The position numbers and the translations under genes were made by a program. A model generated the notes under the pieces. That model saw only the letters and a program-made list of their open reading frames with translations, searched no databases and had not been told where the DNA came from. From Chthoniobacterales bacterium (GTDB lineage Bacteria > Verrucomicrobiota > Verrucomicrobiia > Chthoniobacterales > JACTMZ01), in contig JBBEEK010000028.1 of NCBI GenBank assembly GCA_040880825.1, positions 1 through 37,421 of the forward strand: DNA of 37,421 bases. The letters are read 5' to 3'. Below, piece by piece: positions 3,849-32,799 of this stretch. Within the stretch, counting starts at the first letter, position 1. Each line of letters starts with the position of its first letter.

Positions 3849-3953
3849 GGAGCGGAACGGGCAAATTAGCGGGCGGACGGCGTCGGCGGAAGGTTTTCGT
3901 CCCGCCTCTTTCGACGTGCAGGGGACAGCGGGGTGGGGTATTGCCTTGGGTTG

Positions 3954-5391: not shown

Positions 5392-5454
5392 GAGAGTTTT
5401 ACGTTTCAAGAACCAAAGTGTTAAGGGGGCGTCTTCCTTAAAACTTCAGACCTC

Positions 5455-6342: not shown

Positions 6343-6343
6343 C

Positions 6344-9985: not shown

Positions 9986-9986
9986 C

Positions 9987-16710: not shown

Positions 16711-16737
16711 GGAAGCAGTGACGTGGGCAGACCGTTG

Positions 16738-16766
16738 ATTACCCAAGGAGTTCTCCGTCCGGTCAA
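16738..16766 (-). promoter_or_regulatory. Candidate sigma70-like promoter of the TIR-kinase gene
   Basis: Minus strand TTGACC-N17-GGTAAT, ending 27 nt before ATG 16710; consensus match by eye only. Confidence 0.3.
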
Positions 16767-16853
16767 GCATCAAGCGGTCAGCCGATCGAAACCTCCGGCT
16801 GGCGGGTGCCGGGATTTCTGCTTCATTGGAGACGCGCCAACCTGGCCCCGTTT

Positions 16854-17423
16854 GTGAAACCCCGGATACTCCCACTTTTCCTCCTTCTGGTGGTCTGGCC
16901 TGCCGGCCTCCCGGCCCAAGAGGCCCGTGCCCTGCCGCAGGCGCTCACGCTGGCCGATCGCCCGCTGGTCCTTAATGGCAAAGCCACCCGCACCGTCTGG
17001 GGTTTTCCGGTTTACCAAGTCGGTCTGTTTCTCGAGGAGCCGAGCAACGATCCGCAGGCTATCATGCAGACCAACCGCGGACCCAAACGCGTGCAGATGG
17101 TCATGCTGCGCTCGGTGGAAAAAGAAAAGTTCGTTGCCACGGTGCGGGAGAACATCGAGCAAAATCTGACCGCTGAGGAACAAAAACGCTTCGCGTCCGA
17201 GCTGAAATCCTTCCTCGGCCACCTGCAAAGTGGCGGAGACCTCGATCATGGCCGCATCATCACCATCGATTATCTGCCGCAGCGCGGGACGGTGCTCGGA
17301 CTGGATGGCGCGCGCATCGCCACGATCGAGGGCGACGATTTCTACCACCTCATGCTGCGTTTGTGGATCGGCCGTCCCTTGCAGGCCTCGATCAAAGAGG
17401 GGCTTCTCGGCAGGGCCAACTGA
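16854..17423 (+). CDS. Periplasmic chalcone-isomerase-like protein (fatty-acid-binding fold)
   Basis: Signal peptide from GTG 16854; LVLNG.A.R..WGF.VY.VGLFL and F...LRLWIG.P....K..LLG, typical of bacterial chalcone isomerase-like proteins. Confidence 0.8.
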   Translation: MKPRILPLFLLLVVWPAGLPAQEARALPQALTLADRPLVLNGKATRTVWGFPVYQVGLFLEEPSNDPQAIMQTNRGPKRVQMVMLRSVEKEKFVATVRENIEQNLTAEEQKRFASELKSFLGHLQSGGDLDHGRIITIDYLPQRGTVLGLDGARIATIEGDDFYHLMLRLWIGRPLQASIKEGLLGRAN

Positions 17424-17429
17424 GCAGGA

Positions 17430-17457
17430 TTGACTCCCCGCGCAGCGAATTTAGCGT
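17430..17457 (+). promoter_or_regulatory. Candidate sigma70-like promoter, placed for a leaderless transcript of the hydrolase
   Basis: TTGACT-N16-TAGCGT followed by 7 nt and then ATG 17465; no Shine-Dalgarno sequence. Confidence 0.4.
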
Positions 17458-17464
17458 GGCGGGC

Positions 17465-19105
17465 ATGCCGGCCCGTTTATGTTTTCCCCTGGCCCTGGTG
17501 CTCTTGGCTCTTGCCGGCTGCGCTCAGTATTCGACGGTGCATCGCACGGACCGTCCGGGCGATCTGGCCGTAACCTCCCGCCAGCGCGCCCTGGCGGCCG
17601 ATCAGCAGCGGCAGAGAGATCCCCTGGCCCGCATCGGCGCCTATCTGCAGGAGGCCGACGACGCGCGCCGCGACTTGGCCGGTAATCCGCAGGACGCCCC
17701 ACGACGCAGCGATTACAACTTCGCCGTGGCCCGCATTATCGATGTCATTTCGAAGGAAAAACTGACGCCATGGGACCGCCCGATTGAATGTCCGGGACCG
17801 GACGGACGCATCTGGCGTTTGCGCCTGACCGCGCCTTACCCCCAGCCGGAATACCATCCCTCCAATTTCGAGTTCACGCCATCCGACCGCTATGACTTCC
17901 GCGGCAAGCTGGTCGGCGAGCGCGTGGTCAAGCAGGGGCTTGGCGCGCCACTCGTCGTCGAAAGCCGCAATGTTGACTATGTCAAACTTGACCGCTTCGC
18001 GCAGGGCAACCGTCTCTACTATGGTTTCACCGCACTGGCCAAGATGAGGGGGACTGATGCCGAAATTGTCCTGCTCGATCCGCTCAGCCGGGAAACGGTG
18101 TCCATGGATGGACGGACCCATGAACTGGCCGGCGATTTCCAAGGTCCCCTGGCCCTGGCCCTCGCCGAACTTCATCCGCGCCGCCGCGAACTGGCGGGAT
18201 TTTTCAGCCCGCAGAAATTCGAAGACCGGGTGCGCCTGGCCCGTTTGCAGCCTTACGACCCGCGCAAAATCCCCGTCCTTTTCATCCACGGTCTGACCAA
18301 CTCCCCGGCCACCTGGGCGCCGGTCGTGGAGTTCCTCCGCGGCGATCCGAACATCCGTAAAAACTATCAGTTCTGGTATTTCAGCTATCCGACCGGCCTG
18401 CCTTACCCCCTCACCGCGGCCATGCTTCGCAAGCAGCTGGCCGAGATCCGCAAGAAATATCCCGGCCACAAAGACATCGTGGTCATCGGTCACAGCATGG
18501 GCGGCATGATCAGCCGCATGCTGGTGACCGACAGCGGCATGAAACTTTGGAACACTTTCTTCGACCGTCCGCCGGACCAGTTGCCCTTTTCCGAGGAGAC
18601 CCGGCGGATGATGATGGGCTCGCTCGTCTTCAAGCCCGTCCCGAACATCCGGCGGGTCATTTTCGTCTCCGCTTCCCACCGTGGCAGCGGTATGGCGACC
18701 GACATTTTCGGGCGCCTGGGCGCTGCCATCATCGGGGAACCGATCGCCGAGGAACAAGTATACCTTCAGGCCTCGGCGCACCTCCGCCCCGAGCTCAGAT
18801 CCGGCCGCGGACGGCTCCCGAACAGCGTCGATCTCCTCGATCCGGAGAATCCTTTCCTGCGCACGCTCGACACGCTGCCGGTCTCTTCGCGCGTGCCCTT
18901 TCACAGCCTGATCGGGGACCGCGGACGCGGCGGATTCATCGACCGCGCCAAACCGCAGAGTTCCGACGGCATTGTGCCCTACTGGAGCAGCCACATGCCG
19001 GGAGCGCAGAGCGAGCGCGTCATCCCCAGCGGACACTGGAGCCACCTGCACCCGCTCGGTATGGTTGAACTCAACCGCATTCTCGTCGATCATTTGCGCA
19101 ATTGA
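17465..19105 (+). CDS. Alpha/beta-hydrolase lipoprotein (esterase/lipase-like)
   Basis: Lipobox LAGC; FIHGL oxyanion segment; nucleophile elbow GHSMGG; SDGIVP (Asp) and SGHWSH (His). Confidence 0.88.
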   Translation: MPARLCFPLALVLLALAGCAQYSTVHRTDRPGDLAVTSRQRALAADQQRQRDPLARIGAYLQEADDARRDLAGNPQDAPRRSDYNFAVARIIDVISKEKLTPWDRPIECPGPDGRIWRLRLTAPYPQPEYHPSNFEFTPSDRYDFRGKLVGERVVKQGLGAPLVVESRNVDYVKLDRFAQGNRLYYGFTALAKMRGTDAEIVLLDPLSRETVSMDGRTHELAGDFQGPLALALAELHPRRRELAGFFSPQKFEDRVRLARLQPYDPRKIPVLFIHGLTNSPATWAPVVEFLRGDPNIRKNYQFWYFSYPTGLPYPLTAAMLRKQLAEIRKKYPGHKDIVVIGHSMGGMISRMLVTDSGMKLWNTFFDRPPDQLPFSEETRRMMMGSLVFKPVPNIRRVIFVSASHRGSGMATDIFGRLGAAIIGEPIAEEQVYLQASAHLRPELRSGRGRLPNSVDLLDPENPFLRTLDTLPVSSRVPFHSLIGDRGRGGFIDRAKPQSSDGIVPYWSSHMPGAQSERVIPSGHWSHLHPLGMVELNRILVDHLRN

Positions 19106-19115
19106 TCCTTTCCCC

Positions 19116-20222
19116 GTGACTGCATCGTCCCGCTCGTTCTTCCGGTCGGAGCCACCGGCGCCGATGGAGGCCGTGGCCGCGCTCTTCGGCGAAGGGCGCG
19201 AAGAGACGGCCCGCGCGGTGGTGGATAGTCTGGCTGCGAGAGTTTTCGACGCTGCTCCTCCGCGTCCATCCAACCTCGTGCGCCGGGGATTGGCCCGCTT
19301 GGTGTGGCGCTTGATGCAGGCCACGACGCGCACGGAAATACGTCCGGGTCCCGACGGACAGGAAGTCGTCATCTTTCGCAACCGCATCCTCGAGCGATCC
19401 GGGCATCCTTACGCCACCACGCTGCTCGAGCCTTCGCGGGCCGACACGCAGGGTTTTGTCGAGGGCGGCGATCCCATGAACGCGCTCTACATGATGCTTT
19501 CGCCGGAAATCCGGGGCCGAGCCGGCGTGTGGGACCACATCATGCTCGACTCGGTGCAGGCCCGTGATGTCCAGTTGCGTTTCGTCTGGGAGTCCCGGTG
19601 CAGCTATGACTTGGCTGCGGCGCGTTTGGCGCGCGGCGAAGCAGTCCGCCTCAAAGCTGTGGCGGCCGGGGCCGGTTTGAGCATGGTGCTGGTGCTCGAC
19701 CGTTTGCTGCGCGAGGGCGGCGACCCCGCGCTCATTTCCGCCGTCATCGCCGATCGCGAAGCGGCCAACGTGGCCAAGGCGGCGCGCTTGCTCGGCAAGC
19801 TCGCCGCGACGCGTCCTTTGCTCGAGTCGGATCGCGTGCAAACGGTGGTCGAGGATCTTCTGGCCCCGGCGCACGACCGTCCGGCCGACGTGATCACTGC
19901 CATGGGTATTCTCGAATATTTCCCCGGCCATACTTTCACCACCACCGAGCGGCACCTCGGGCATCCCGAGCCGGCGGGCCCGCCGCATGCGGAAGATCTG
20001 GTGCGCAACCTGGCGGCCATGACTGCTCCCGGTGGTTCGCTCGTGACCAATACCTTCCGTCTGATCAGCGCGGTGCGGATCATGGAGGTGTTCGGCAAAA
20101 AATTCCGCTACCGCGGACGCTCCGAAATGCAACGCCTGCTCGCCACCTCCGGGTTCGTCCCGGCTGGACGGCACCATTCAGGTCACGTCTTCGACGTGGA
20201 AGTTTTCCAGAAGCGCGTTTAG
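19116..20222 (+). CDS. Divergent class I SAM-dependent methyltransferase-like protein
   Basis: Motif I-like AVAAGAG, acidic ADRE, VEDL, DVITAMGILEYF and LAAMTAPGGSLV. Start could be GTG 19116 or ATG 19164. Confidence 0.65.
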   Translation: MTASSRSFFRSEPPAPMEAVAALFGEGREETARAVVDSLAARVFDAAPPRPSNLVRRGLARLVWRLMQATTRTEIRPGPDGQEVVIFRNRILERSGHPYATTLLEPSRADTQGFVEGGDPMNALYMMLSPEIRGRAGVWDHIMLDSVQARDVQLRFVWESRCSYDLAAARLARGEAVRLKAVAAGAGLSMVLVLDRLLREGGDPALISAVIADREAANVAKAARLLGKLAATRPLLESDRVQTVVEDLLAPAHDRPADVITAMGILEYFPGHTFTTTERHLGHPEPAGPPHAEDLVRNLAAMTAPGGSLVTNTFRLISAVRIMEVFGKKFRYRGRSEMQRLLATSGFVPAGRHHSGHVFDVEVFQKRV

Positions 20223-20938
20223 GGCGCGAAATCGGCCTCCGCGTGCGTCACATCGTGGCGGATATTCGCGCCGTCGATCTCGGTGGTCCGGCCGCCGGCC
20301 TGCACGGACATCCCGGCGGGAATGTGGCGGCCGGTGTCGTCCTTGGCCACTTGCGTCGTCTCGATACGGCGGGCCAGTTTTCCGGATTTGTCATACTTTT
20401 CCACCCGCATGGTGACCATGCGCCGCGGATCGATCCAGCTGCGCACTTGGCCGTAGATGGTTGCGTCCCGGCGGCCGGGCCGGGACTCAAGGACGAGGCA
20501 CTCGGTTTTGCCCACGGTCTCCGTTCCGGCCAGGGTCTGCTTTTCCCAGCGGAAAAAGTTTTCGATGACGTCCGCGTAGGCCAGCGCTGTTCCGAAGACA
20601 GACTTTGACATCTCGGCCGCCCCGAGACGGACCGTGGCACCGCCGGGTGCTTTCACCACACCGCGGCCGGCTGGCCGGAGAACAAAAGCTTCGCCCTTGC
20701 GTTCGGCCGGCCAGAGAATTTCGTAGGCCGTAACCGCGCTGGCCGCGGTGCGCCGGGATTTGATCCGGATTTGCAGGACACCCGTTTCGGGCGAAGTCAT
20801 TTTCACGCGCGCCGTGGCATCTCCATCTTCCACCGCCGCGGCCATGGCCCCGGCCAGCTTCGGCGCGTTCCAGTCGGCGGCGGCGGCGAACGGGGCGGCC
20901 GCCAGCAGCACGGTGAGAGCAAGGGAGGGACTGCGCAT
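20219..20938 (-). CDS. Outer-membrane lipoprotein-sorting / LolA-like periplasmic protein
   Basis: Signal peptide from ATG 20938; VFGTALAYAD, CLVLES.P...YGQVRSWID...VEKYDKSGKLAR, typical of LolA-like proteins found with MacB-type ABC systems. Confidence 0.8.
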   Translation of the reverse strand: MRSPSLALTVLLAAAPFAAAADWNAPKLAGAMAAAVEDGDATARVKMTSPETGVLQIRIKSRRTAASAVTAYEILWPAERKGEAFVLRPAGRGVVKAPGGATVRLGAAEMSKSVFGTALAYADVIENFFRWEKQTLAGTETVGKTECLVLESRPGRRDATIYGQVRSWIDPRRMVTMRVEKYDKSGKLARRIETTQVAKDDTGRHIPAGMSVQAGGRTTEIDGANIRHDVTHAEADFAP

Positions 20939-20973
20939 GACTTCACGCACTGAAAGACTGGGGCGGACGGCGG

Positions 20974-22080
20974 TCAACCCTGAAGCGCCAGGCTGGGTGA
21001 AAGCCGCGAGCTGCGCCACGCGGGGTAGAGCCCGCTGACCACGCCGACCAGCATGGCGATGAGCACGGCTCGCACCGCCAGCGGCCATCCGAGATCCGGC
21101 TGGAGAAATCCTCGCACGTAGGGCGTTGTCTCGAGCACGGCGAGCACGGCGGCGCCGAGGAGCACACCGACGAGACCGCCGAGCAGGCCCATGGCCGCCG
21201 ATTCGCAGAGGATGAGCGCCATGATGCGTGTGCGTTGCCAGCCGAGCGCCAGCAGGACACCGATCTCGTGTTTGCGTTCAAAGACGCTCATCAACATGGT
21301 GTTCATCACACCGAGGACCCCGACAATGATGGCGAGCAGCGAGGTGCTCCAACTCATGGCGCGAGCCATGCGGAATCCCTGGCTCGTGCCGACCAGTTCT
21401 CCGGCGGCCACGGCGCGCAGACCCGGATGCCGGGCCTCGATGGCTTGGCAGAGGGCCCCGACATCGGTGCCTTTGGTGACGCGCACGTTGACGAAGTTGG
21501 CCCGGTCCTCGTAACCGGAGACCTCTTGGAAGCGCGGGAGGGCAAGGTTGACCGCGCCGTTCTCCAGCACGGAGGAACCGTCGACGACGCCGACCACGGT
21601 GAATTCGCCGGCTTCGATTTGCACCGGGTCACCGACTTTTTTGCCCAGGACTTCGGCCGCAAGTTTGCCCAGCACCACGGCCGGTTCCGCGGCGTCCCGC
21701 GGCAGGCGCCCCTCGAGAACTTTGAGTCCGTCCCAGGTGAAAGAGTCCCACTCGCGTCCGTAAACGACCATCATGGGCGCGTCCTCGACACTCAGCATCT
21801 GCATGAGGGTGGCATTGGCTTCGGCCACGCCGGGCAGGGCCGCGATGCGGTCGCGGACCGACTCTTCGAAAGCCTTGGGCATGATGCCGCCCTGCATGTT
21901 GCTCACCACGACATCGATCCCGATCGAATCGAGTTGGTCGCCCACGCTTTTCTCGTAGCCCGAGGCCATCCCGACCAAGGCGACTACTGCGGCGATGCCG
22001 ATGGCAATACCGAGCACGGTCAGACCCGTGCGCACCGGACGGCGCCGCAAACCGCGGAAGATAACCTGCAGGAAATTCAT
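20974..22080 (-). CDS. ABC transporter permease, MacB/LolE/FtsX type
   Basis: RRPVRTGLTVLGIAIGIAAVV, periplasmic domain, GVMNTMLMSVFERKHEIGVLLALGW, YPAWRSSRLSP. Start ATG 22080 overlaps the ATPase stop. Confidence 0.92.
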   Translation of the reverse strand: MNFLQVIFRGLRRRPVRTGLTVLGIAIGIAAVVALVGMASGYEKSVGDQLDSIGIDVVVSNMQGGIMPKAFEESVRDRIAALPGVAEANATLMQMLSVEDAPMMVVYGREWDSFTWDGLKVLEGRLPRDAAEPAVVLGKLAAEVLGKKVGDPVQIEAGEFTVVGVVDGSSVLENGAVNLALPRFQEVSGYEDRANFVNVRVTKGTDVGALCQAIEARHPGLRAVAAGELVGTSQGFRMARAMSWSTSLLAIIVGVLGVMNTMLMSVFERKHEIGVLLALGWQRTRIMALILCESAAMGLLGGLVGVLLGAAVLAVLETTPYVRGFLQPDLGWPLAVRAVLIAMLVGVVSGLYPAWRSSRLSPSLALQG

Positions 22081-22778
22081 GAAGTGACTCCGTCGGAAAC
22101 GACGCGTCCGTCGCGGATTTCCACCAGGCGCGAGGCGTGGGAGGCCAGCTCGCGGTCGTGCGTCACCATGACCAGCGTGGCGTCGTGCTCCCCGCGCAGG
22201 CGCTGGAGCAACTCCATGACGTGCGCGGAGTTTTTGCTGTCGAGGTTGCCGGTTGGTTCGTCGGCCAGAAGGATGGATGGACGGTTGGCCAGGCTGCGGG
22301 CGATGGCGGCGCGCTGGCGTTCTCCGCCGGACAACTTGACCGGCAAGTGGTCCAACCGGTGCGACAGTCCGACGCATTCGAGCAATTCGATGGCGCGGGC
22401 CCTGCGCGCGGCGGTGGAACCCGGCAGACCGAACATGGGGATCTGCACGTTTTCTTCGACCGTGAAATTCGGCAGGAGGTGGAACGATTGGAAGATAAAG
22501 CCGATGTCGCGCGCGCGATAAGCTGCCGGGTCGCCGAGCGAAGCCAAGTCGCGGCCGCGGAAATACAGGGTGCCCGCGGTCGGGCGATCGAGCAATCCGA
22601 GCATGTTGAGCAGGGTCGTCTTCCCGCAACCGCTCGGACCGACGATGGCCACGAATTCGCCGCGGCGGATGCGGAGGTCGATGCCGCGCAAGGCAGGGAC
22701 ACTGCCGCCGTCGTATTCCTTGGTCAGGCCGGCGGCCTCGTAGAGGATCTCGCCGGGCGGCGTTTCATGTCCCGGCAT
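22077..22778 (-). CDS. ABC transporter ATP-binding protein, LolD/MacB type
   Basis: GPSGCGKT, IGFIFQSFHL, LSGGERQR, ILLADEPTGNLD, VTHD; start ATG 22778. Confidence 0.94.
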   Translation of the reverse strand: MPGHETPPGEILYEAAGLTKEYDGGSVPALRGIDLRIRRGEFVAIVGPSGCGKTTLLNMLGLLDRPTAGTLYFRGRDLASLGDPAAYRARDIGFIFQSFHLLPNFTVEENVQIPMFGLPGSTAARRARAIELLECVGLSHRLDHLPVKLSGGERQRAAIARSLANRPSILLADEPTGNLDSKNSAHVMELLQRLRGEHDATLVMVTHDRELASHASRLVEIRDGRVVSDGVTS

Positions 22779-22786
22779 GGCGCGGT

Positions 22787-23752
22787 CTACTCGAACGCGG
22801 CCCACTGCGCGCCGACGCGGGGATCGCGCAGACGGGCGAGCAAATCGGCGAAGGCCGAGCGGTAGTTCGGGAAGGGCACCGTGTCGCCATGGTCCTGCGG
22901 CTCGATCAAACCGACATGGTCCGGCAGTTCCTCGTAAGGGATGGAACTTTTCACGTGATGGACGCCGTGCAGCGGTTGGTGCAGGAGGCTCAAGGCGACG
23001 AGGCGTCCGGGCGCCGTTTCCACGATGACGCTGCGCGTCGCGCTGCGCCCGGTGTTGCCGCTCAATCCGACGTGCTCGATGTATTTGCGCCAGCTTTGCA
23101 TGTTGCCGGCGATGAAGGCGGGAATGAAGTAAAGGACGAGGAACCAGTTCCACACGTTGAACCATGCGACGAGTCCGAGCACGGTGCCCCAGAGCGCGAT
23201 CATGCCCGCGGTCTCGCGCCAGATGCGTTGGCGCACGGTTTTGTTCGTCACCGGCGAAGGGCTTTGCAGGAAGACGCGCCAGAACAGGAGCGGTGTGTAG
23301 AAAAAGCCGAAGTTCAATTCGAGGAAAGCGGCCAAGCGGCGCCACCACAGCGGCTGTTGCGGATCGACGAAGGGCCAGAGTTCGAGGTCTTTCACCGTCG
23401 CCAGATTGACGTGATGTTTCTGGTGCAGGGCCCGGTAGAGGGTGAAGGGCGTGAGGCTGATCATGCCGACAATTTGGCCGTCGAATTCGTTGAGCCACTT
23501 GCTCTCGCGCAAATTGCCGTGTGCCGCCTCGTGGAAGGCGATGAGCATGGCGTGCATGAAATGGCTCGAGATGAGAACCAGGGGAATGATGAGCCAGAGA
23601 AAAGCCCCGCGGCCGGAGGTGTATTCATACATGCACCAGGCGAGCAGGCCGGCGGTCAGGTAAGTGCCGGTGGCCACCCAGGTGAAAGAGGCGCGGCAGG
23701 GCCAGGGCTCGGCATGCGCGGCGTGCGAAGGGTCTTTGACGGTCATGTGCAT
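22787..23752 (-). CDS. Membrane fatty-acid desaturase/hydroxylase family protein
   Basis: Three His boxes HEAAH, HQKHH and HGVHH, plus several TM helices. Confidence 0.9.
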   Translation of the reverse strand: MHMTVKDPSHAAHAEPWPCRASFTWVATGTYLTAGLLAWCMYEYTSGRGAFLWLIIPLVLISSHFMHAMLIAFHEAAHGNLRESKWLNEFDGQIVGMISLTPFTLYRALHQKHHVNLATVKDLELWPFVDPQQPLWWRRLAAFLELNFGFFYTPLLFWRVFLQSPSPVTNKTVRQRIWRETAGMIALWGTVLGLVAWFNVWNWFLVLYFIPAFIAGNMQSWRKYIEHVGLSGNTGRSATRSVIVETAPGRLVALSLLHQPLHGVHHVKSSIPYEELPDHVGLIEPQDHGDTVPFPNYRSAFADLLARLRDPRVGAQWAAFE

Positions 23753-23765
23753 GGCGGTTTTTCTT

Positions 23766-25139
23766 TCAGGTTGTCAGGGCGGCGGGGCGGGTTGAGGAAT
23801 TGCGCCCGACTTCACCGATGACGCCCCGGTAGATGCGGTCGAGTTCCGCAATATCCGCGTGGGTCAGGACGTCTGTCCGGTGCAGCCAGACTAACTCCAA
23901 ATTTCGGCCATCTTCCGTGATTTCGCAGCCGATGTCAAAGCGCGCCGTGCCCGTGGAAACCAGCTCGAGCCGGCTGGAAATGCCGGGAATATCGATGCCG
24001 GGGAAGGGGTGGTTTTGCACGGCAAAGCGGACATCGAAAACGGGGTGACGTCGGGCCATTTCCTCGCCTCCGACCGCCGCGGCCAGCTCGGCGAAAGGCA
24101 TGGCGCGGGCAAAATCGTCGACCACTCCGCGGTGCAGTTCGGTCAGCCCCGCATCGAAGGGCTGGTCCGGATCGAGCCGGGCGCGAAGCGGAACGTTACC
24201 CGAAAAATAGCCCATGGTTTCGCGGACAGCTGCCGTGGTCCGTCCGGCCACCGGCGTGCCGACCACGACGTCCGTCGCGCCGGCCCAGCGGAAGAGGGCC
24301 ACGCGGAACGCGGCGAGCAGGGTCGAAAAAAGGGTGACGCCCCGGGACTTGGCCAAGGCGCGCAGCGGGTCGACCAGGGCGCCGGCGATTCCGGCGTGCC
24401 AGCGGACGAGTGGTCCGGGTTGGAGGGTGCCGCGGTCGTGGAAGAGCGGACGCGAGCCCTCCAGCCGTTGGCGCCAATATTCGCCGTGCTTTTGCAATTC
24501 GGCTGGCGTCCACTGCGCCCGCTCCGTCGCCGCCCATTGCCCGTAGGTCGTGGCCAGGGCCGGTAATTCGAGCCGCATCGTCCCGAGGCGCGACATGTCG
24601 TTGCCGGCGCTTTGCCACGCGAGGAGGCAGCCAGTGGTGAAGTCGTGGACGAAATTGCTGAAGGTCCATCCGTCGGCGATGGAATGATGCAGGGCCAGGG
24701 CGAGCACGTGGTGGTCGGCGCCGCGCTTCAACATCTCGATGCGGTAGAGCGGTCCGCGGATGAGATCGATCGGTCGGGCGAAAAATTCTTCCGTCTGCGC
24801 GGGCCGGTGTTCATCGCCGGCGGCGGACGCCGGCAATTCGCGGTAGGACAAAACCGGATCGGCTTCGGCCCGCACCACTTGGAGGGGGCGTTCTTTGCCG
24901 GGCAGGAAAGTGGTGCGCAGGACATCGTGGCGCTTGATCACGTGGCCGAGGGCCTGCGTGCACATGGCGGGGGTGAGCGGTCCGCGGATGTCGAGGAAGC
25001 AGCAGATATTGTTCGAGGCGTCGCCCGGGGGCACGGCGGAGGCTTCCCACAACTCGCGCTGCGGAAAAGAAAGCGGCTCGAGCCGGGCCTTGCCGGCAGA
25101 CAGCCACTCTTTGAGTTTGCTCCGTGGGTCGGCTTCCAT
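23766..25139 (-). CDS. Free-standing NRPS-type condensation domain protein
   Basis: PLSFPQRELW, RHDVLRTTF, catalytic HHSIADG, YWRQRL, VVGTPVAGR...GYF, MPFAEL, ARFD. About 457 aa with no A or T domain. Start ATG 25139, 7 nt after the PKS stop. Confidence 0.92.
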   Translation of the reverse strand: MEADPRSKLKEWLSAGKARLEPLSFPQRELWEASAVPPGDASNNICCFLDIRGPLTPAMCTQALGHVIKRHDVLRTTFLPGKERPLQVVRAEADPVLSYRELPASAAGDEHRPAQTEEFFARPIDLIRGPLYRIEMLKRGADHHVLALALHHSIADGWTFSNFVHDFTTGCLLAWQSAGNDMSRLGTMRLELPALATTYGQWAATERAQWTPAELQKHGEYWRQRLEGSRPLFHDRGTLQPGPLVRWHAGIAGALVDPLRALAKSRGVTLFSTLLAAFRVALFRWAGATDVVVGTPVAGRTTAAVRETMGYFSGNVPLRARLDPDQPFDAGLTELHRGVVDDFARAMPFAELAAAVGGEEMARRHPVFDVRFAVQNHPFPGIDIPGISSRLELVSTGTARFDIGCEITEDGRNLELVWLHRTDVLTHADIAELDRIYRGVIGEVGRNSSTRPAALTT

Positions 25140-25146
25140 CCGCCGC

Positions 25147-28100
25147 CTACTCGGTGGTGGCCGCGACGGCGGTCCGGTTCGTTTCCGGTGCGGGCTGATC
25201 GGCGAGGATCTCCTCGAGCGCTCCGGCGTCGAGTTCGTCGAAATTGATTTCGTCGACCGTGACAACGGCTTCTTGGACGGGTGCCGCCGCGGGTGCGGTC
25301 TTGGTTCCGCCGCCGAGATGCTCGTCGATGAGCCCGGCGATCTGGCCGATGGTGCGTGCGCGCAGCAGGCTGGTCGGCGGCAAGGTCACCCCGACAGCAC
25401 TTTCAATCATGTTTTCGATCTCCACGCCCATGAGCGAATCGAGGCCGAGATCGGTCAGCGGTTGCTCCGGGCGGAGGGACTCGGGTTTGACGCGGAGGAC
25501 GGATCCGACCACTTCCTGCAGCGCCAGGATAATGATGCCCTGTCGCTCCGCGGGGGCGGCGGCATCGATGCGCTTGCGCCAATCGCCGACTTTGCCGGCG
25601 GATTCGTCGGCCTCGGCGGTGCCGGAGAGGACGCGCTCGAACAACCGGTTTTCCTGCGCGCCTTTCGATGCTTGGCGCCATTTGGCCCAGTCGATGCGCA
25701 TGCCCGCCGCCTGCGGGGCGCCCGTGCCGAGAAGAATCTCCAGCACTTCGAAAATTTCCCGCGGTTCGACGAGACCTGTGCCGATGCGCGCGAGGTATTC
25801 GGCCACGCGTTCGTTGCGCGCCACGTAGCCTTCGCCGCCGAGCGCACCCCAATTGACCGCGAGGGCCGGTTGTCCGAGAGACCGGCGGTGATGGGCCAGC
25901 GAGTCGAGGAAAGCGTTGGCCGCGGAATAGTTGCCTTGTGCGGGGTTGCCGAAAATGCTCGAGGCGGAGGAAAACATGACGAAAGCGTCGAGCGGTTGGT
26001 CGTGTGTGGCCTCGTGCAGGAGCCAGGCGCCGCGGGCTTTGGGATTGAGGACGGACGCCATGCGGTCCTCCGTCAGGTCGGCCAAGGGCGCATCATCAAG
26101 GACCATGGCCAGATGAAATACGCCTTTGAGCGGACGTCCGGCCGCGCGGATGCGGGTCATGACGGCATCCGCGCCCTCGGGCGTCCCGATATCCGCGGCC
26201 ACCGCGAGGACCTCCGTGCCGGCCGCATGCAACTCGGCGATGAATTCGTCCGCGCCCGGTGCAGCCGCGCCCTGACGGCTGGTCAGGACGAGATGACGCG
26301 CGCCTTTTTCCGCCAGCCAACGGGCCAGACTGCGTCCGAAGCCGCCGAATCCCCCGGTGACAAGGTAAAGCGCCTCCGCATCGACACGGAAAGGCGCGGC
26401 GGGAATTTCGCCTTGGCGCGAGACGAAGGGTTCGGCGAAATTCAAGATGACCTTTCCGGTGTGCTTGCCGCCGGCCATGAGACGGAAAGCGGCGTCGAGG
26501 CGGTTGACGGGGAAAGAGCGGTGCAAGAGCGGACGCAATTTTCCGGCGGCGACGAGCGCGGCGATTTCCGTCATGAGTTCGCGGGTCAGGGCCGCGTCGC
26601 CGGCGAAGACGGCATCCATGGCGACCACGTGAAAGGACGCGTTCTTGCGCAGGTGCCACATGGGCAGTTTGGAATTCTGGTAGATGTCGCGCTTGCCGAT
26701 CTCGATGAAACGTCCGAATTCGGCCAGACACGAGAGGCCCATGGGAATGGCTTCGGCGGCGAGGGCGTTGAGAACCGCGTCAACGCCGCGTCCGCCGGTC
26801 AGGCGTTTGACTTCCTCGGCGAAATCACCGCGGCGTGAATCCACCACATGCGCCACGCCGAGCGTCTGGAGCAGGGAGCGCTTGGCCGGGCTGCCGGCCG
26901 AGGCGATGACTTCGGCCCCGAGGTGATGCGCGATCTGGATGGCGGCCATGCCGACCCCGCCAGCTCCGGCGTGCACGAGGATTTTTTCGCCGGCGCGGAT
27001 CCGTGCCACGTTGACCAGCGAATGCCACGCGGTCATGAAAACGACCGGGATCGTCGCGGCCTGCTCGGGGGTGATCCCCTTGGGAATGGGCAACACATCT
27101 TCTGCGCGGGCCAGCGTGTGCGTAGCCAAACCGAAAACGGCCAGGCCGAAAACACGGTCGCCCGGTTTGACGTGGGTCACGCCGTCGCCGACCGCGAGGA
27201 CCTCGCCGGCCACCTCGTCGCCATACATGCGGGCATCGGCCGTCTCGGCCGGATAAAGTCCCAGCGCCTTGAGGACGTCGCGGAAATTCAAGCCGGCTGC
27301 CTCGACGCGGATCAGCACCTGACCCGGTTCGCAAACGGGCATGGTGAAAGCTGTGAGTTGCAGACTGTCGAGCACGCCGCGCTCGAGGGATTCGACGCGC
27401 AGCGGGACTTCGGGGCCGAGTTCGCGGGTGCGGACCGGCAAGCCGCGGGTCAGACGCAGTCCGTAGCGGGCCTCGTCGCGCAGGGCGATTTCGCGTTCCG
27501 GCTCATCGCGGGAAAGTTCGCCATGCAGGATTGCGGCATCGCGGGCCGAAGCGCGCGGTGGAAGGTCGATGCTGCGGACCACAACGTGGGGGTTTTCGTT
27601 GAGCAGGACGCGGAAAACTCCCAACACGGCGCCCGCGCCAAGGTCGATGGATTGGCGATCGCGTCCGACCGGTTGCGCGCCGCGGGTGACCACATCAACC
27701 CGGAGACCGCTGGCCGCCGCACCGAACCGGCCGAGGAAAACGGAAAGATTGCGCAGGGCCGTGGCATCGCGTTGGAACTCGCCGTCGCGGGCCGTGGCCA
27801 GGCCCCACAAATAAACGATACGCCGGGGTATCTCGGCGGACACCGCCTCGGCCAGCTTGGCCCAATCGGCCTCGCTCGATGGATCGATGGTGTATCCGTC
27901 CTGGCTGGCGCTGAAGTCCGTGCCCCGACGCACGACGCCGCAGGTTCCGCCGGCCGCGACAAGGGAAGTGGCCAGTCCGGCGCCGGTGCCTGCGTCGTCC
28001 GCAAAAACCAACCAACCGGCCGCCGGCATCTCCACCGCTTGGCCGGCGACGGCGCTTTCTTCCGCCTTGCGCGCCATGGCCAGAAATTGCGACTCCCCGC

Positions 28101-31100
28101 CCTCCGGCCCGGCCAGACCCGGCACGCTTGCGGTCTCCGCGAATCCGCATTCGCGCAATAGTTCCTCCCACCGTTCGCGCCCGAGAAGCGGGTGATCGGT
28201 CCGCAGGTCGGTGTCGGTCATGCTCCACCAACCGGACGTGAGCCCGAAGACGGACTCGGTCCAGGTGCGCGGCGAAGCCACATCGACAAAAGCCAGCGTC
28301 CCGCCGGGGGCAAGCAGGCGGTGGAGACGCCGCAAAGTCGCGCGTAAATCGCACGCGGCATGCAGGACATTCGTGCCGATGATGAAATCGAAGGAGCCTT
28401 CATCGAATCCCTGTTCGAAAGGCTCGCGATTCAAGTCGAGCGGCTGGTATTCGACCTCGGGGAAGCTGGCCAGCTTTTGCTGCGCCGAGGGGAAGAAGGC
28501 GGCCGACGCGTCGGTGAACACGTAGCGATGCAGTTCACGCTGCAAACGCGGAAGGACATAAGCGGCCAAACCGCCCGTGCCCGCGCCGACTTCAAGAATG
28601 CGGAGCCCGCGACCTTCGGGCAAAGCCAAGGCGGAGCGCCGCAGTGCGGTGGCCACGCCGGCCAGCCAGGGCGAGGAAAAGATGCCGTCGCTGTAAAAAT
28701 GCTCGAGCAAATCGGAACCGGCCCCGGTGAAGAGGACCTGCACGGCGTCCTTCTCCCCGCGCATGATCGCGGCGAAGTTCCGTCCGGTGGTCGCGCCCAA
28801 GAGCGCCTGCGGATAGTGCTCGGGGCGGGCTTGGAGAAAGGTGCGCAATTTGTCTTCGGCCGTGCCGGCCCACGCATCGAAGTGGTCCGTCGCCGCCCAA
28901 CCATCCTGCCGCGCCGCAAGCGCGCCGCGTCCGGCCAGCGCTTCCATCAAGCGGGCGAAGACGCGCTGCTGCGGCTCGACGACGCGGAGCGAGCCGGCGG
29001 TGAAGTTGCCGCCCTCGCGCACGCCCATCTCGTGCAAGCCGGCGGCCACGAAAGCGGCGGCGAGATCATCCTCCTCGCCCATGACCTGCCGCATGTTGTC
29101 TTCGCCGCGCAGGGCGACGACGCTGGACCCCGCCTCCGCGGCCGAGCGCTGCAATTCCGCCAGCGGGACACCGGGAGTTTCCAGCGTGTCGGCCGGCCCC
29201 GGCAACCTCTGCCAATCGAGATGGTAAACGAGGTCGCGCCAGCCGGATGTTCCGCCTTTTTTGCCGAAGGACAAAGCCACGGCGCGGAAGCCTTCGACGT
29301 AAACGGCCGGACGCCCGGCTTCGTCATAAAGTGAAATATTGCCCTCGATCAGCTCGTCGTTGTTTTGCGTCACTTCGGCGCGGACCCGTGCCGCGGCCCC
29401 GGGAGTGCGCAGGAAAAGGATGCGCGAGAAACGCACCGGCAATTTCATTTTTTCCTCGAGGCCTTCCATGGCGCGGCCCCCGGCCGAGAAGACGTGGAGC
29501 GCGGCATCCATGATGACCGGATGCATTGCGTAGTCGCCGGCGCGTTCGGCCGCGGTCTCCGAGAGCGAAACGCGACCTGCGGAACGGCCGGCGCGCGTGG
29601 CCAGTTCCCGCACGGCACGGAATTCCGGACCGTAGGGCAGACCGAGGCGCGCCATCGTTTCGTACGAGCTTTCCGGCGATTGTCCTTCGAATCCGGCGGT
29701 CGCATCTTGCCAGGGCGAATTTTCGAATGCCGACGCGACGCGCTCGGACCGCAGCGAGCCGACGACATGCACCGACCAATTGGGCGAGGGCTCGAAGCGG
29801 CTTTGGATGTTGAAGGTGCGTTCGACCGGGTCGTAGGTCAGCTCCATGACCAAATCCTCCACCGCCTCCGGCACGATGAGGGGCTTGCGGATTTCGAATT
29901 CCTCGACGGCGAAGGGCCGTCCCTCGAACAATTCGCGCCCGGCCTCGAGCGCCATTTCGATGAAGCCGGCGGCGGGAAAGACAATGTGTTTGTCGACGCG
30001 GTGGTCGCGCAGGTAGGCGAGGTGACGTTCGTCGAGCCGGCAGGTCCAGGTCGGCACGGAACGCAGCAGTTTGGCGTCGAGCAACCCGCGACCGCCGGGA
30101 TGAAGCCGCCCGTGCTGGGCCTCACCCGACTCGCTCCACCAGCGGGCTTTGTTCCAGGGATAAGTCGGCAACTTGAGCAGACGACGGGACGGAGTCATCG
30201 CCTCGAAGCGCAGCTCGACGCCGAGACGGTGCAGGTCGTTGGCCGCCTCGACCAGAGCTTCCTGCTCGCGTTCGCGTCGCGTGGAGGAGACGACTTGTGT
30301 TTTCCCGCCGTTGCCGGCCAGACATTCCTGGATGGAAATGGCCAGCGCGGGGTGCGCGCTCAATTCCAGCCAGATGTCCACGCCGTGCTCTGCCATGGAG
30401 CCGACCGCTTCGACGAAGCGCACCGGCTGACGGATCCCGCGCGCCCAATAGGAGGCCACGCAGTCCTCGCCGCGGCAACGTTCGCCGGTCACGGTGCAGA
30501 AAAAAGGCACGGTCTCGGCGCGCGGTTGCAAATGCGCCAAGCGCTTTTCCACGGCGTCGGCCGCCGGTTGCATCATGGCGTGGTGGAAGGGATGGCTGAC
30601 GCGCACAAAGCGGGCGAAAATTCCCGCCGTCTCCAGTTCGGCCGCCATTATTTCGAGGGACGTCTTGCGTCCGGACATGGTGAGCGACTTCGGACCATTG
30701 AAGGCCGCGATGCTCACTTCCGGATCATGGCGGGCGATCAATTCTCCGGCTTCCGCCGGCGAGAGTCCCACCGCCAGCATGGCGCCTTCGCCGTGGGTGC
30801 AATCCTGCATCGACTGCGCGCGAATCACGATGATCTCGGCCGCCTCCTCGAGCGTGAAGATCCCCGCGAGGCAAGCCGCGGCCACCTCGCCGACGCTGTG
30901 GCCGACGATGCACGAAGGTTCGATGCCGCGGGACTTCCATAGTTCGGCCAGTGCGATCTGCATGGCGAAAATGGCGGGTTGGGCGAATTCGGTCTGACCA
31001 AGGCGCGTTTCACTCTCATCGCGCATCAATTCCTCGAAGAGGGAAAAACGGGCATGCGGGGCCATGGCCGCCGCGCAGCGTTCCATGGCTGCGCGGAAAA

Positions 31101-32799
31101 CCGGTTCGGTCCGCATGAGTTCGCGTCCCATCCCCCACCATTGCGGCCCCTGTCCGCTCATGACAAAGCCGATGCGCGGGGCGTGTTCGGGTGCGGGTGT
31201 GAACGACGTTTTCAACTCCGGACTGGCGCCTTCCTGCGCGAATTCGCGCAAGGCGTCAGCCAGTTGACGGTCCGATTTCGGCGCACCGGTCAGCCGGTAA
31301 GAATGATGGTTGCGTCGTGCGCCGAGCGTGTGAACCAGATCCGGCAGCAGCGATGATACGCCGTTGGCGCGAAGCTTGGCCTCGATCCATGACGCGAGGT
31401 TCGCGGCGGAGGCCTTGAGCGATTCTTCGGAACGCGCGGAGAGGACGAAAGGCCAGGCGCGATTGTCTTCGACGACGACAGCGGACGACTCGGGGCGCGC
31501 GGGAGGTTCGGAGAGAATGACGTGTGCGTTGGCCCCGCCGAAACCGAAAGAATTCACGCCGATGGTGCGCGGTTTTTTTCCATCGCCCGGGAAATCCTCG
31601 GTGGCCACCGGCACGCGCAGACGGCAGGCCTCGAAATCGATGTGCGGACTCGGTTCCTTGAAATTCAGGCTCGGCGGGATTTTTCCGCGGTTGGCCACCA
31701 GCGCGGCTTTCATCAGTCCGGCCACGCCGGCGGCTGTCTCGAGGTGTCCGAGATTCGTCTTCACCGAACCGATGACCAGAGGGTGTCCGGCAGGACGTTC
31801 CTGACAAAGCGCTTCGGCCAGCGCATGCGCTTCGATCGGATCACCGACCGCGGTGCCCGTGCCGTGCGCCTCCACGTAGCCGATGTCGGACGGATCAATG
31901 CCGGCGATGACGCAGGCCTTTTTGACCAACCGGGCTTGCGCCTTCTGGCCGGGGAGGGAAATGCCGTTGGTGTGTCCGTCTTGGTTCGTCGCCGTGGCGC
32001 GGATCACCGCGTAAACCGGATCGCCGTCGGCCAGGGCCCGCGCCAACGGCTTGAGCACCACCATGCCGGCCCCTTCGCCGCGCACGAAACCGTCGGCCGA
32101 CGCGTCGAACGCTTTGCAGCGACCTTCCGGGGAAAGCATGCTGGCGCGCGAGAATCCGATGAAGCCCTCGGGCGTGATCATGACCGTCACGCCGCCGGCC
32201 ATGGCCACCGGACAATGCCCCGCCGCCAGCTGCTCGCAGGCGATATGCACCGCGGTGAGCGCCGCCGAGCAGGCGGTGTCCATCGCGATGCTCGGCCCGG
32301 TCAGGTTGAAGCAATAAGAAATGCGATTGGCCGCGATGCTGTGCGCGTGCCCGGTCGGGGTGTGCGCGCAGATGCGCGAACGGTCGCCCCCGCCGCCCTG
32401 GATCGACTGGTAATCGTTGTGCGAGACGCCGACGAAGACCCCGATGTCCGTGCCGTTGCCCAAGTCGAGCACGAGGCCGGCATCCTCCATCGCCTCCCAA
32501 GCCGTCTCGAGGAGGAGGCGTTGCTGCGGATCGATGGAGGGAGCCTCGCGGGGTGAGATGCCGAAAAATTGCGGGTCAAACTGGTCGATGCCATTGATGA
32601 ACCCGCCGCGCTTGGCGATCGATTTGCCGGGCAACCCGGCCTCCGTGTCATGAAAGCGCGCGATGTTCCAGCGGTCGGCCGGGATTTCGGACACCGCCTC
32701 GCGTCCTTCGAGCAGGAAGTTCCAGAAATCCTCCGGATTGTTCAGACCGCCGGGAAAGCGGCAGCCCATTCCGATAATGGCAATGTCTTCCTTCTTCAT
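25147..32799 (-). CDS. Single-module highly reducing type I PKS: KS-AT-DH-cMT-ER-KR-ACP (no TE, no loading domain)
   Basis: KS: DTACS, HGTGT, KTNLGHLE. AT: GHSVG, HPFH. DH: DHRVDKHIVFP, HPVIMD. cMT: LEVGAGTGG, TNVLHA. ER: NFRD, LVHAGAGGVG. KR: TGGFGGFG, HLAMVLDD, GNPAQGNYSAAN. ACP: LGLDSLM. Confidence 0.97.
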   Translation of the reverse strand: MKKEDIAIIGMGCRFPGGLNNPEDFWNFLLEGREAVSEIPADRWNIARFHDTEAGLPGKSIAKRGGFINGIDQFDPQFFGISPREAPSIDPQQRLLLETAWEAMEDAGLVLDLGNGTDIGVFVGVSHNDYQSIQGGGGDRSRICAHTPTGHAHSIAANRISYCFNLTGPSIAMDTACSAALTAVHIACEQLAAGHCPVAMAGGVTVMITPEGFIGFSRASMLSPEGRCKAFDASADGFVRGEGAGMVVLKPLARALADGDPVYAVIRATATNQDGHTNGISLPGQKAQARLVKKACVIAGIDPSDIGYVEAHGTGTAVGDPIEAHALAEALCQERPAGHPLVIGSVKTNLGHLETAAGVAGLMKAALVANRGKIPPSLNFKEPSPHIDFEACRLRVPVATEDFPGDGKKPRTIGVNSFGFGGANAHVILSEPPARPESSAVVVEDNRAWPFVLSARSEESLKASAANLASWIEAKLRANGVSSLLPDLVHTLGARRNHHSYRLTGAPKSDRQLADALREFAQEGASPELKTSFTPAPEHAPRIGFVMSGQGPQWWGMGRELMRTEPVFRAAMERCAAAMAPHARFSLFEELMRDESETRLGQTEFAQPAIFAMQIALAELWKSRGIEPSCIVGHSVGEVAAACLAGIFTLEEAAEIIVIRAQSMQDCTHGEGAMLAVGLSPAEAGELIARHDPEVSIAAFNGPKSLTMSGRKTSLEIMAAELETAGIFARFVRVSHPFHHAMMQPAADAVEKRLAHLQPRAETVPFFCTVTGERCRGEDCVASYWARGIRQPVRFVEAVGSMAEHGVDIWLELSAHPALAISIQECLAGNGGKTQVVSSTRREREQEALVEAANDLHRLGVELRFEAMTPSRRLLKLPTYPWNKARWWSESGEAQHGRLHPGGRGLLDAKLLRSVPTWTCRLDERHLAYLRDHRVDKHIVFPAAGFIEMALEAGRELFEGRPFAVEEFEIRKPLIVPEAVEDLVMELTYDPVERTFNIQSRFEPSPNWSVHVVGSLRSERVASAFENSPWQDATAGFEGQSPESSYETMARLGLPYGPEFRAVRELATRAGRSAGRVSLSETAAERAGDYAMHPVIMDAALHVFSAGGRAMEGLEEKMKLPVRFSRILFLRTPGAAARVRAEVTQNNDELIEGNISLYDEAGRPAVYVEGFRAVALSFGKKGGTSGWRDLVYHLDWQRLPGPADTLETPGVPLAELQRSAAEAGSSVVALRGEDNMRQVMGEEDDLAAAFVAAGLHEMGVREGGNFTAGSLRVVEPQQRVFARLMEALAGRGALAARQDGWAATDHFDAWAGTAEDKLRTFLQARPEHYPQALLGATTGRNFAAIMRGEKDAVQVLFTGAGSDLLEHFYSDGIFSSPWLAGVATALRRSALALPEGRGLRILEVGAGTGGLAAYVLPRLQRELHRYVFTDASAAFFPSAQQKLASFPEVEYQPLDLNREPFEQGFDEGSFDFIIGTNVLHAACDLRATLRRLHRLLAPGGTLAFVDVASPRTWTESVFGLTSGWWSMTDTDLRTDHPLLGRERWEELLRECGFAETASVPGLAGPEGGESQFLAMARKAEESAVAGQAVEMPAAGWLVFADDAGTGAGLATSLVAAGGTCGVVRRGTDFSASQDGYTIDPSSEADWAKLAEAVSAEIPRRIVYLWGLATARDGEFQRDATALRNLSVFLGRFGAAASGLRVDVVTRGAQPVGRDRQSIDLGAGAVLGVFRVLLNENPHVVVRSIDLPPRASARDAAILHGELSRDEPEREIALRDEARYGLRLTRGLPVRTRELGPEVPLRVESLERGVLDSLQLTAFTMPVCEPGQVLIRVEAAGLNFRDVLKALGLYPAETADARMYGDEVAGEVLAVGDGVTHVKPGDRVFGLAVFGLATHTLARAEDVLPIPKGITPEQAATIPVVFMTAWHSLVNVARIRAGEKILVHAGAGGVGMAAIQIAHHLGAEVIASAGSPAKRSLLQTLGVAHVVDSRRGDFAEEVKRLTGGRGVDAVLNALAAEAIPMGLSCLAEFGRFIEIGKRDIYQNSKLPMWHLRKNASFHVVAMDAVFAGDAALTRELMTEIAALVAAGKLRPLLHRSFPVNRLDAAFRLMAGGKHTGKVILNFAEPFVSRQGEIPAAPFRVDAEALYLVTGGFGGFGRSLARWLAEKGARHLVLTSRQGAAAPGADEFIAELHAAGTEVLAVAADIGTPEGADAVMTRIRAAGRPLKGVFHLAMVLDDAPLADLTEDRMASVLNPKARGAWLLHEATHDQPLDAFVMFSSASSIFGNPAQGNYSAANAFLDSLAHHRRSLGQPALAVNWGALGGEGYVARNERVAEYLARIGTGLVEPREIFEVLEILLGTGAPQAAGMRIDWAKWRQASKGAQENRLFERVLSGTAEADESAGKVGDWRKRIDAAAPAERQGIIILALQEVVGSVLRVKPESLRPEQPLTDLGLDSLMGVEIENMIESAVGVTLPPTSLLRARTIGQIAGLIDEHLGGGTKTAPAAAPVQEAVVTVDEINFDELDAGALEEILADQPAPETNRTAVAATTE

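Follow-up and report, generated by a model that had tools for sequence, protein, structure and literature searches.

A conserved polyketide synthase cassette with a dedicated Lol-like transporter and carrier in Chthoniobacterales

The window analysed here is the entire 37.4-kb contig JBBEEK010000028.1 (C28; 37,421 nucleotides) from the 1.33-Mb, 66%-complete genome of a Chthoniobacterales bacterium (GCA_040880825.1). It carries six minus-strand, co-directional genes at 20219-32799, which encode a reducing polyketide synthase (PKS), a free-standing condensation (C) protein, a desaturase-family protein, the ATPase and permease of an ATP-binding cassette (ABC) transporter, and a LolA-like protein. 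Together they are a real, strongly conserved orphan biosynthetic-export cassette of the kind that combines a PKS-made lipid with a dedicated exporter. On balance we favour the view that the cassette is self-contained and serves a PKS-derived envelope lipid, which would be built, off-loaded, exported and carried toward the outer membrane by its products. A literature search found no published description of a PKS-C-desaturase-ABC-LolA-like cassette, in agreement with an earlier sequence-only reading of this DNA, which had matched it to no characterised biosynthetic gene cluster; the comparison was made through the literature.

A conserved six-gene cassette

The extent of the operon follows from its open reading frames (ORFs) and their Pfam matches. 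From the PKS to the LolA-like gene the intergenic gaps are 7, 13, 8, -4 and 35 nt, using start codons consistent with orthologue alignments, and these values reproduce those first reported for the locus. The third-position GC content peaks in the operon frames, with the exception of the two ABC genes if these are taken as their long ORFs with upstream extensions. A promoter scan found no sigma-70-like site, and all 31 terminator-like matches fall within genes. The six genes, from the PKS onward, are:

25147-32799, minus strand: type I fully reducing PKS of 2550 aa, with ketosynthase (KS), acyltransferase (AT), dehydratase (DH), C-methyltransferase (cMT), enoylreductase (ER), ketoreductase (KR) and acyl carrier protein (ACP) domains in that order (Pfam)
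23766-25139, minus strand: free-standing condensation-domain protein of 457 aa (PF00668, 180 bits)
22787-23752, minus strand: membrane di-iron fatty-acid desaturase/hydroxylase family protein of 321 aa (PF00487, 108 bits)
22077-22778, minus strand: LolD/MacB-like ABC ATPase of 233 aa (ABC_tran, PF00005, 118 bits)
20974-22080, minus strand: type VII ABC permease of 368 aa (MacB_PCD, PF12704, 87 bits; FtsX, PF02687, 69 bits)
20219-20938, minus strand: periplasmic LolA-superfamily protein of the LolA3/PF17131 type, 239 aa (PF17131, 71 bits)

A six-frame genome search returned no match on the contig to AMP-binding (PF00501) or thioesterase (TE; PF00975) models, the contig holds no acyl-AMP ligase, and 24 further ORFs of the window, scanned against Pfam, revealed no adenylation (A) domain, TE or membrane-fusion protein. 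The absence of TE, A domain and acyl-AMP ligase remarked on in the sequence-only reading is therefore upheld.

Of 301 genomes sampled within the order, 79 (one of them the unpublished G560) have an orthologue of the C protein, counted as a match at E<=1e-60; these represent 8 of the 16 families and 32 of the 82 genera, while an even draw of 400 genomes across the phylum added just three other positive genomes, all in one genus of another order. When the C protein alone was searched against genome contigs, two true relatives and one nonribosomal peptide synthetase (NRPS) appeared among the matches listed. We read 35 related loci from 9 families, in sets of 14, 2, 18 and 1. The earlier proposal had been staked on the ABC and LolA-like genes staying beside PKS homologues, and they do: the order and strand of the PKS, C-protein, desaturase, ATPase and permease genes are kept in 35 of 35 loci, as far as the contigs extend, and the LolA-like gene comes next in 30 of the 35. 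Three loci (L019, L020 and L040) stop at a contig end before the LolA-like gene, which in L020 opens the next contig. The other two, G457 (L045) and G473 (L046), both from genomes that are 97% complete, have the five other genes and no LolA-like gene of the cluster type anywhere in the genome; in G457 a second, convergent permease gene with MacB_PCD and FtsX domains takes its place.

This synteny is far beyond chance, and the six genes are inherited as one unit. In distant genomes the flanks differ, with amylase, NIF3, gluconolactonase or DUF899 genes, and no conserved extra partner genes were found in them; because the flanks are mutually unrelated, the six genes mark the borders of the unit. 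Directly upstream of the PKS in the window, at 32878-35133 on the minus strand, lies a gene whose 751-aa product has RyR and TPR-S domains; it was not found beside the PKS among the related loci that were read and so probably stands outside the cassette. Two irregularities were seen among the relatives. In G479:C153 (L039) an IS200-like transposase gene (PF01797, 82 bits) lies at 7189-7638, between the PKS and C-protein genes. Three genomes (G575, G588 and G681) each have two C-protein matches at E<=1e-60, the second copy on G575:C453 showing 41% identity; these double matches may be second cassettes or fragments.

Cassette proteins and accessory genes

The PKS is recognised by Pfam across its length (KS 323, AT 247, PS-DH 91, Methyltransf_12 67, ADH_zinc_N 87-95, KR 230 and PP-binding 50 bits). 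Its catalytic motifs, by their usual definitions, are intact in KS (DTACS, HGTGT, NLGH), AT (GHSVG, HPFH), DH (H..P, DAALH) and cMT (EVGAGTGG at 1401, NVLHA at 1477), and are likewise present in ER (HAGAGGVG), KR (GGFGGFG and YSAAN) and ACP (LDSL). This full set is that of a type I fully reducing module, and the glycine-rich S-adenosylmethionine (SAM)-binding motif with the histidine of NVLH is that of a PKS C-methyltransferase domain. The closest solved relative is mycocerosic acid synthase (MAS; 9d2z, 999 bits). The protein is a single module with no loading domain, fatty acyl-AMP ligase (FAAL) or TE, an architecture compatible with iterative use or with extension of a long primer. The HPFH motif of the AT resembles the malonyl-type HAFH, so that any methyl branch would derive from SAM. 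The desaturase-family protein has the three histidine boxes of PF00487 (HEAAH, HQKHH and HGVHH); it matches no NCBIfam equivalog, the top models scoring just 31 and 30 bits, no solved relative was found, and its Atlas neighbours are generic.

The C protein carries the motif HHSIADG, and HHxxxDG is present in 120 of 120 orthologues among the matches listed. It scores 180 bits on PF00668 against a cut-off of 30.6, and among solved structures is closest to Txo2 (E 2.6e-41), Txo1 (3.3e-41) and the PCP-C didomain of TycC (3.8e-33; PCP, peptidyl carrier protein), followed by SgcC5 (4znm, 3.2e-16), the PKS-NRPS PsoA (1.3e-13) and the CON domain of LovB (6e-7); VibH reaches only 0.085. There is no entry for PapA5, a protein whose structure is in the PDB, among its 57 solved-structure matches at E<=10, which leaves a kinship of the PapA5 type without support. 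Judged by its sequence, this is a C domain of the true NRPS type. The longer relatives of the protein, of 801-2285 aa, are only NRPS modules at 26-37% identity, a length range too short to reveal PKS-C fusions of about 3000 aa.

A related genome, G008, which is 100% complete, is informative about the acceptor of the C protein. It has two PP-binding matches only, one in an AcpP-sized frame and the other the ACP of the PKS, and three AMP-binding matches, which are on other contigs and in frames free of any PP-binding match; a PCP-bound acceptor with an A domain was thus not found in this genome. With only an AcpP-like protein and the PKS ACP, a PCP-bound acceptor is not available, and without a thioesterase or a second carrier protein the C protein would release the chain onto a free nucleophile. 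A few free-standing C enzymes are known to pass the acyl group of a carrier protein to an alcohol or amine in free form. We take transfer of the chain from the ACP of the PKS to a free nucleophile to be the probable off-loading reaction of the C protein.

The transporter combines a separate ATPase with a permease that has the MacB periplasmic core and the FtsX C-terminal domain of type VII (MacB-like) systems. On NCBIfam models the ATPase scores 232 bits for LolD (cut-off 308), 209 for MacB, 190 for DarD, 189 for bacteriocin export and 182 for DevA, while the permease, at 54-61 bits, falls far short of the 362-bit cut-off of the lolCE model. Cassette permeases score 40-54 bits on the LolC/E model across the genomes compared, whereas a separate LolC/E-like gene scoring 306-312 bits is present at another place in G008 and G006, and also in the cassette-less G003 and G007. 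Outside the cassette, a second LolA_like match occurs in 5 of 5 genomes tested. Since a much better LolC/E-like gene exists elsewhere, the cassette transporter is a paralogue and not the housekeeping system; going by these model scores, it is a dedicated accessory LolD/LolC-type paralogue. An equivalog-level match to LolCDE-LolA was not obtained, LolD and LolC/E being below their cut-offs and canonical LolA reaching a TM-score on the query (TMq) of about 0.4. No membrane-fusion protein gene was found in the scanned ORFs of the window or in the flanks of distant loci, and no TolC-like gene lies in or beside the cassette. A tripartite efflux pump of the MacAB-TolC or DevBCA kind was rejected because none of these ORFs and flanks yielded a fusion protein.

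The LolA-like protein has a Sec signal, with no cysteine or lipobox in the signal sequence. Its AlphaFold2 (AF2) model (pLDDT 88.3) predicts the open beta-barrel and N-terminal helix of LolA3/PF17131-type proteins, and the best Foldseek matches are 4z48 (TMq 0.80), 3bk5 (0.77), LolA3 of Porphyromonas gingivalis (9tp6, 0.76) and 3buu (0.71); canonical LolA lies at about 0.4, and LppX (2byo) at 0.30, in rank 45. In the available text of the sources, LolA3 does not pair with LolB (PMC13103446), and its deletion has no phenotype (PMC11885536).

Three plus-strand genes converge on the LolA-like gene. The sequence-only reading described the gene content of the cassette correctly and overlooked these linked genes:

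19164-20222, plus strand: protein of 352 aa with a predicted class I SAM-methyltransferase fold (AF2 fold; family lacking a Pfam model)
17363-19105, plus strand: predicted lipoprotein with a PGAP1-like alpha/beta-hydrolase domain and the lipobox LAGC (Pfam, N-terminus)
16806-17423, plus strand: secreted chalcone-isomerase-like (CHI-like) protein (PF16036, 121 bits; signal-like N-terminus)

The LolA-like and methyltransferase-fold genes meet tail to tail, sharing 4 nt at their stop codons (20219-20222), and a terminator scan found no terminator-like hairpin between the two.

The methyltransferase-fold protein has no match in Pfam, NCBIfam or a sequence search of the PDB. Its AF2 model (pLDDT 90.2) suggests a SAM methyltransferase of class I that carries a helical lid; in Foldseek it is matched best by the C-methyltransferase of CurJ (5thy) and by natural-product methyltransferases of the DnrK/RdmB type, with E about 1e-9 and TMq about 0.4, and its Atlas neighbours are class I methyltransferases. 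A search of 5.8 billion proteins found only about 201 relatives, and all the named ones are called 'hypothetical'. Within the order the gene is found in 24 of the 79 C-positive genomes and in none of the 222 C-negative ones. Within the genus, 14 of 30 genomes have both this gene and the C protein and 16 have neither; a separate draw of 24 genomes gave 13 with both and 11 with neither. Neither G030 nor the three C-positive genomes of the other order yielded a match to it.

The position of the methyltransferase-fold gene varies. It is convergent beside the LolA-like gene in 7 of the 14 loci of the first set, and also in G021; it is on another contig in G009, G014 and G019, where the hydrolase and CHI-like genes are still alongside; in G686 it is the next gene downstream of the LolA-like gene and shares its strand, with the gene for a patatin-like lipase behind it; and in G684 it lies inside the operon, between the ATPase and permease genes. 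These varied arrangements across families argue for a functional link, though counts among kin are not independent. The lipoprotein hydrolase gene accompanies it in the 12 related loci whose contig reaches that far, and in G521 stands upstream of the PKS on the same strand. A CHI-like gene adjoins the hydrolase gene in six of six loci that reach it (G006, G008, G009, G019, G014 and G021).

Proposed function and alternatives

The gene content fits the sequence of making, off-loading, modifying, exporting and carrying a lipid that was first suggested for this operon. In the mechanism that we propose, the PKS would extend a fatty-acyl primer, or work iteratively, with malonyl units, and the cMT domain would methylate the alpha carbon from SAM to give a saturated, methyl-branched acyl chain on the ACP. 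The C protein would then form an amide or ester with a free nucleophile, which could be an amino acid, an amine, an alcohol or a lipid head group, and the desaturase would add a double bond or hydroxyl to the membrane-embedded product. The type VII ABC transporter would extract this lipid from the outer leaflet of the inner membrane and pass it to the LolA-like carrier, which would move it toward the outer membrane. In about 30% of cassette-bearing genomes the methyltransferase-fold enzyme may further tailor the product, and in the genus the lipase-like hydrolase lipoprotein and the CHI-like protein, a putative lipid-binding protein, may tailor, remodel or bind it.

Several points weigh against this account. 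Product, nucleophile and destination are all inferred; the specificity of the AT, with its HPFH motif, and any iterative use of the PKS are not confidently readable from sequence, and the desaturase has no informative subfamily match in NCBIfam, solved structures or Atlas. By similarity the C protein most resembles elongation C domains, which normally use a PCP-bound acceptor, and a free acceptor would be an unusual use of the domain represented by few enzymes (SgcC5 at 3.2e-16, VibH at just 0.085). A LolB-like or other outer-membrane component is absent from the cassette, and the carrier is dispensable in G457 and G473, which do without it. The genomes are kin and not independent, so that the phyletic counts overstate significance. 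A complex prediction for the periplasmic domain of the permease with the mature LolA-like protein gave a score of 0.51, the best control reaching 0.01, with runs sharing at least 48% of contacts and a partner pLDDT of at least 88. This passes a mark that 58 of 80 solved complexes and 2 of 110 mismatches pass, but scores of 0.60 or below account for 7 of the 80 solved complexes and for both passing mismatches. A LolA-LolC complex has already been solved, so the predicted docking may reflect likeness only, and it is a weak indication that the two proteins meet.

The outer-membrane carriage of a lipid has to be weighed against export of a different kind. We consider it rather unlikely that the cassette makes a specialised metabolite for secretion, for instance a signal of the N-acyl amino acid or amine type, a surfactant or an antibiotic, with the ABC transporter providing efflux or self-protection and the LolA-like protein acting as a periplasmic binding or immunity factor. 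Small molecules are exported by MacB-family pumps, and on the ATPase the MacB (209), DarD (190) and bacteriocin-export (189) models come near LolD (232); two genomes manage without the LolA-like gene, the cassette lacks an outer-membrane acceptor, and its patchy spread (79 of 301 genomes, 14 of 30 in the genus) is what accessory metabolites usually show. However, membrane-fusion and TolC-like genes are absent in or next to the cassette, so that efflux across the outer membrane would have to proceed without its usual parts, and a fully reduced methyl-branched chain would be very hydrophobic. Of the 32 loci in which the contig continues beyond the permease gene, 30 have a gene for a dedicated LolA-superfamily protein with a hydrophobic-groove fold after it, and the linked lipoprotein hydrolase and secreted CHI-like protein suggest lipid handling in the periplasm.

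It is quite improbable that the acyl chain is a lipid anchor, joined by the C protein to a peptide, protein or glycan that the Lol-like pair then exports as a macromolecule, in the manner of Lol with lipoproteins or of the part proposed for the RkpA/WcbR PKS lipid in capsules. Such an anchor would accord with the normal cargo of Lol-type systems, which is lipidated protein, with the amino-acyl amines that NRPS-type C domains normally take as substrates, and with the description, in the part of the source available, of mono-modular PKSs beside capsule genes (PMC3908369); yet across the 35 loci no conserved gene for a glycosyltransferase, a precursor-like peptide or polysaccharide export stands beside the cassette, and the flanks vary by family. 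It is extremely improbable that the ABC genes and the LolA-like gene belong to ordinary lipoprotein sorting or housekeeping and adjoin the PKS by chance. LolD is indeed the top NCBIfam model of the ATPase, but ATPase and permease both score under the equivalog cut-offs (232 against 308 and 61 against 362), and a better LolC/E-like gene exists elsewhere, including in genomes without the cassette; chance adjacency of housekeeping Lol genes was rejected on these grounds. Across 9 families, moreover, the three genes come and go with the PKS, with gaps of 8, -4 and 35 nt.

We therefore return to an envelope lipid as the favoured reading. A more specific version can be put forward only tentatively, namely that the cassette is a second Lol-like route in Verrucomicrobia of this order, whose cargo would be no lipoprotein but a polyketide lipid, a methyl-branched acyl amide or ester that the free NRPS-type C domain releases onto a nucleophile not bound to a carrier. 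Such a lipid would be a Gram-negative counterpart of the outer-membrane lipids of the phthiocerol dimycocerosate (PDIM) type in mycobacteria.

Relation to known systems, the wider window and significance

The mycobacterial loci for PDIM, sulfolipid and polyacyltrehalose combine a Mas or Pks synthase with a PapA acyltransferase, a DrrABC or MmpL transporter and LppX. The parallel with PDIM drawn in the sequence-only reading holds for the operon logic and for the PKS, whose best solved relative is MAS, and fails for the families of the C protein, transporter and carrier. Common to both are a MAS-like reducing PKS, an HHxxxDG condensation-fold enzyme in place of a TE, a dedicated transporter with a LolA-superfamily carrier, and a methyl-branched envelope lipid, which here is the presumed product. 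The methyl branches of PDIM-type lipids come from methylmalonyl-CoA, whereas here they would be supplied by the SAM-dependent cMT domain, alongside a putative malonyl-type AT; PapA is replaced by an NRPS-type C protein, DrrABC or MmpL by a type VII (MacB/LolC-like) transporter, and LppX (TMq 0.30) by a soluble LolA3-type carrier. FAAL is absent here, and the phylum differs, as does the envelope, which is of the lipopolysaccharide (LPS) type.

In the heterocyst glycolipid system, Hgl PKSs work with the exporter DevBCA-HgdD, in which DevBCA has a fusion protein and a TolC-like partner. A PKS-made envelope lipid and a MacB-family ABC exporter are common to both systems (the DevA model gives 182 bits on the present ATPase), but here neither the fusion nor the TolC-like partner is present and a LolA-like protein is found instead. 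With LolCDE-LolA the cassette shares a separate ATPase, a MacB_PCD and FtsX permease that works without a fusion protein, and a soluble LolA-superfamily partner; it differs in having one permease gene, whose product is presumably a homodimer, and in a cargo that is presumably not protein. SgcC5 and VibH are likewise stand-alone enzymes of the C fold, and here the donor would be a PKS ACP with a long reduced chain.

The aryl polyene and flexirubin clusters are the nearest Gram-negative analogues. As far as the available text of the sources goes, aryl polyene clusters encode the LolA-like ApeL, the LolB-like ApeN and the resistance-nodulation-division (RND) protein ApeM, and flexirubin loci encode LolA2 and LolB2; these Lol homologues are proposed, not shown, to bring the lipid to the outer membrane (PMC8253772, PMC11885536). 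Within the limits of that text, the present cassette shares with them a Gram-negative lipid cluster of PKS or fatty-acid-synthase type with its own Lol homologues and a SAM methyltransferase in the cluster. Those clusters, on the same accounts, use type II KS and ACP proteins, an RND protein and a LolB-like lipoprotein, with lysophospholipid and glycosyl-type acyltransferases for attachment, whereas here there are a type I megasynthase, a C domain, a type VII ABC transporter, no LolB-like protein, and a carrier of the LolA3 rather than the ApeL type. The hallmarks of an aryl polyene or flexirubin cluster, namely a type II KS with chain-length factor, ACPs and an acyl-ACP synthetase for an aromatic starter, were not found, the locus having a type I megasynthase on a contig devoid of AMP-binding domains.

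The mono-modular PKSs SupA and SwfA, from symbionts, and WcbR/RkpA are, in the accessible parts of the sources, single reducing type I modules with proposed (methyl-branched) fatty-acid products that are unproven; the Swf partners are a reductase/sulfotransferase and a radical-SAM protein, and the Wcb and Rkp partners are capsule genes (PMC3908369, PMC4245539). In those parts no free C domain, desaturase or Lol-like exporter is mentioned for any of them, and SupA is likened to the present PKS by description only. The portion available of a paper on a metagenome-assembled genome of Ca. Udaeobacter reports no PKS cluster (PMC7343977).

Elsewhere in the window, a minus-strand frame of 678 aa at 1947-3983 joins two domains in one protein, a lipid A biosynthesis acyltransferase (PF03279) and a family 9 heptosyltransferase (PF01075), which fits an LPS-type envelope. 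A Bat/MoxR-type operon at 4402-12702 on the plus strand encodes a MoxR AAA_3 ATPase, DUF58, DUF4381, BatA-VWA, VWA-TPR (BatB-like), BatD and TPR-SH3 proteins; the VWA-TPR protein ends in a long acidic tail rich in Q, E, D and K, which accounts for an AT skew of 0.50 at 9001-10000. At 13405-16875 on the minus strand lies a gene for a 1156-aa protein with TIR, Ser/Thr protein kinase and Sel1-repeat regions, which may be of a defence or signalling type.

The cassette, with a C-protein orthologue in 79 of 301 genomes, is common in an order that is environmentally abundant and little cultured. If the proposed function is true, it would give an accessory transporter of the Lol-like kind, and with it the LolA3-type proteins, a defined cargo, and the LolA3/PF17131 family its first assigned cargo class; the function of that family is left open in the available text of two sources (PMC13103446, PMC11885536). 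It would also give an example of an NRPS-type C domain that releases the chain of a stand-alone reducing PKS, acting without a PCP, and would tie a new methyltransferase family to a polyketide-lipid cassette. For the Verrucomicrobia themselves, it would point to an unrecognised methyl-branched lipid in the envelope, and with it a possible biomarker.

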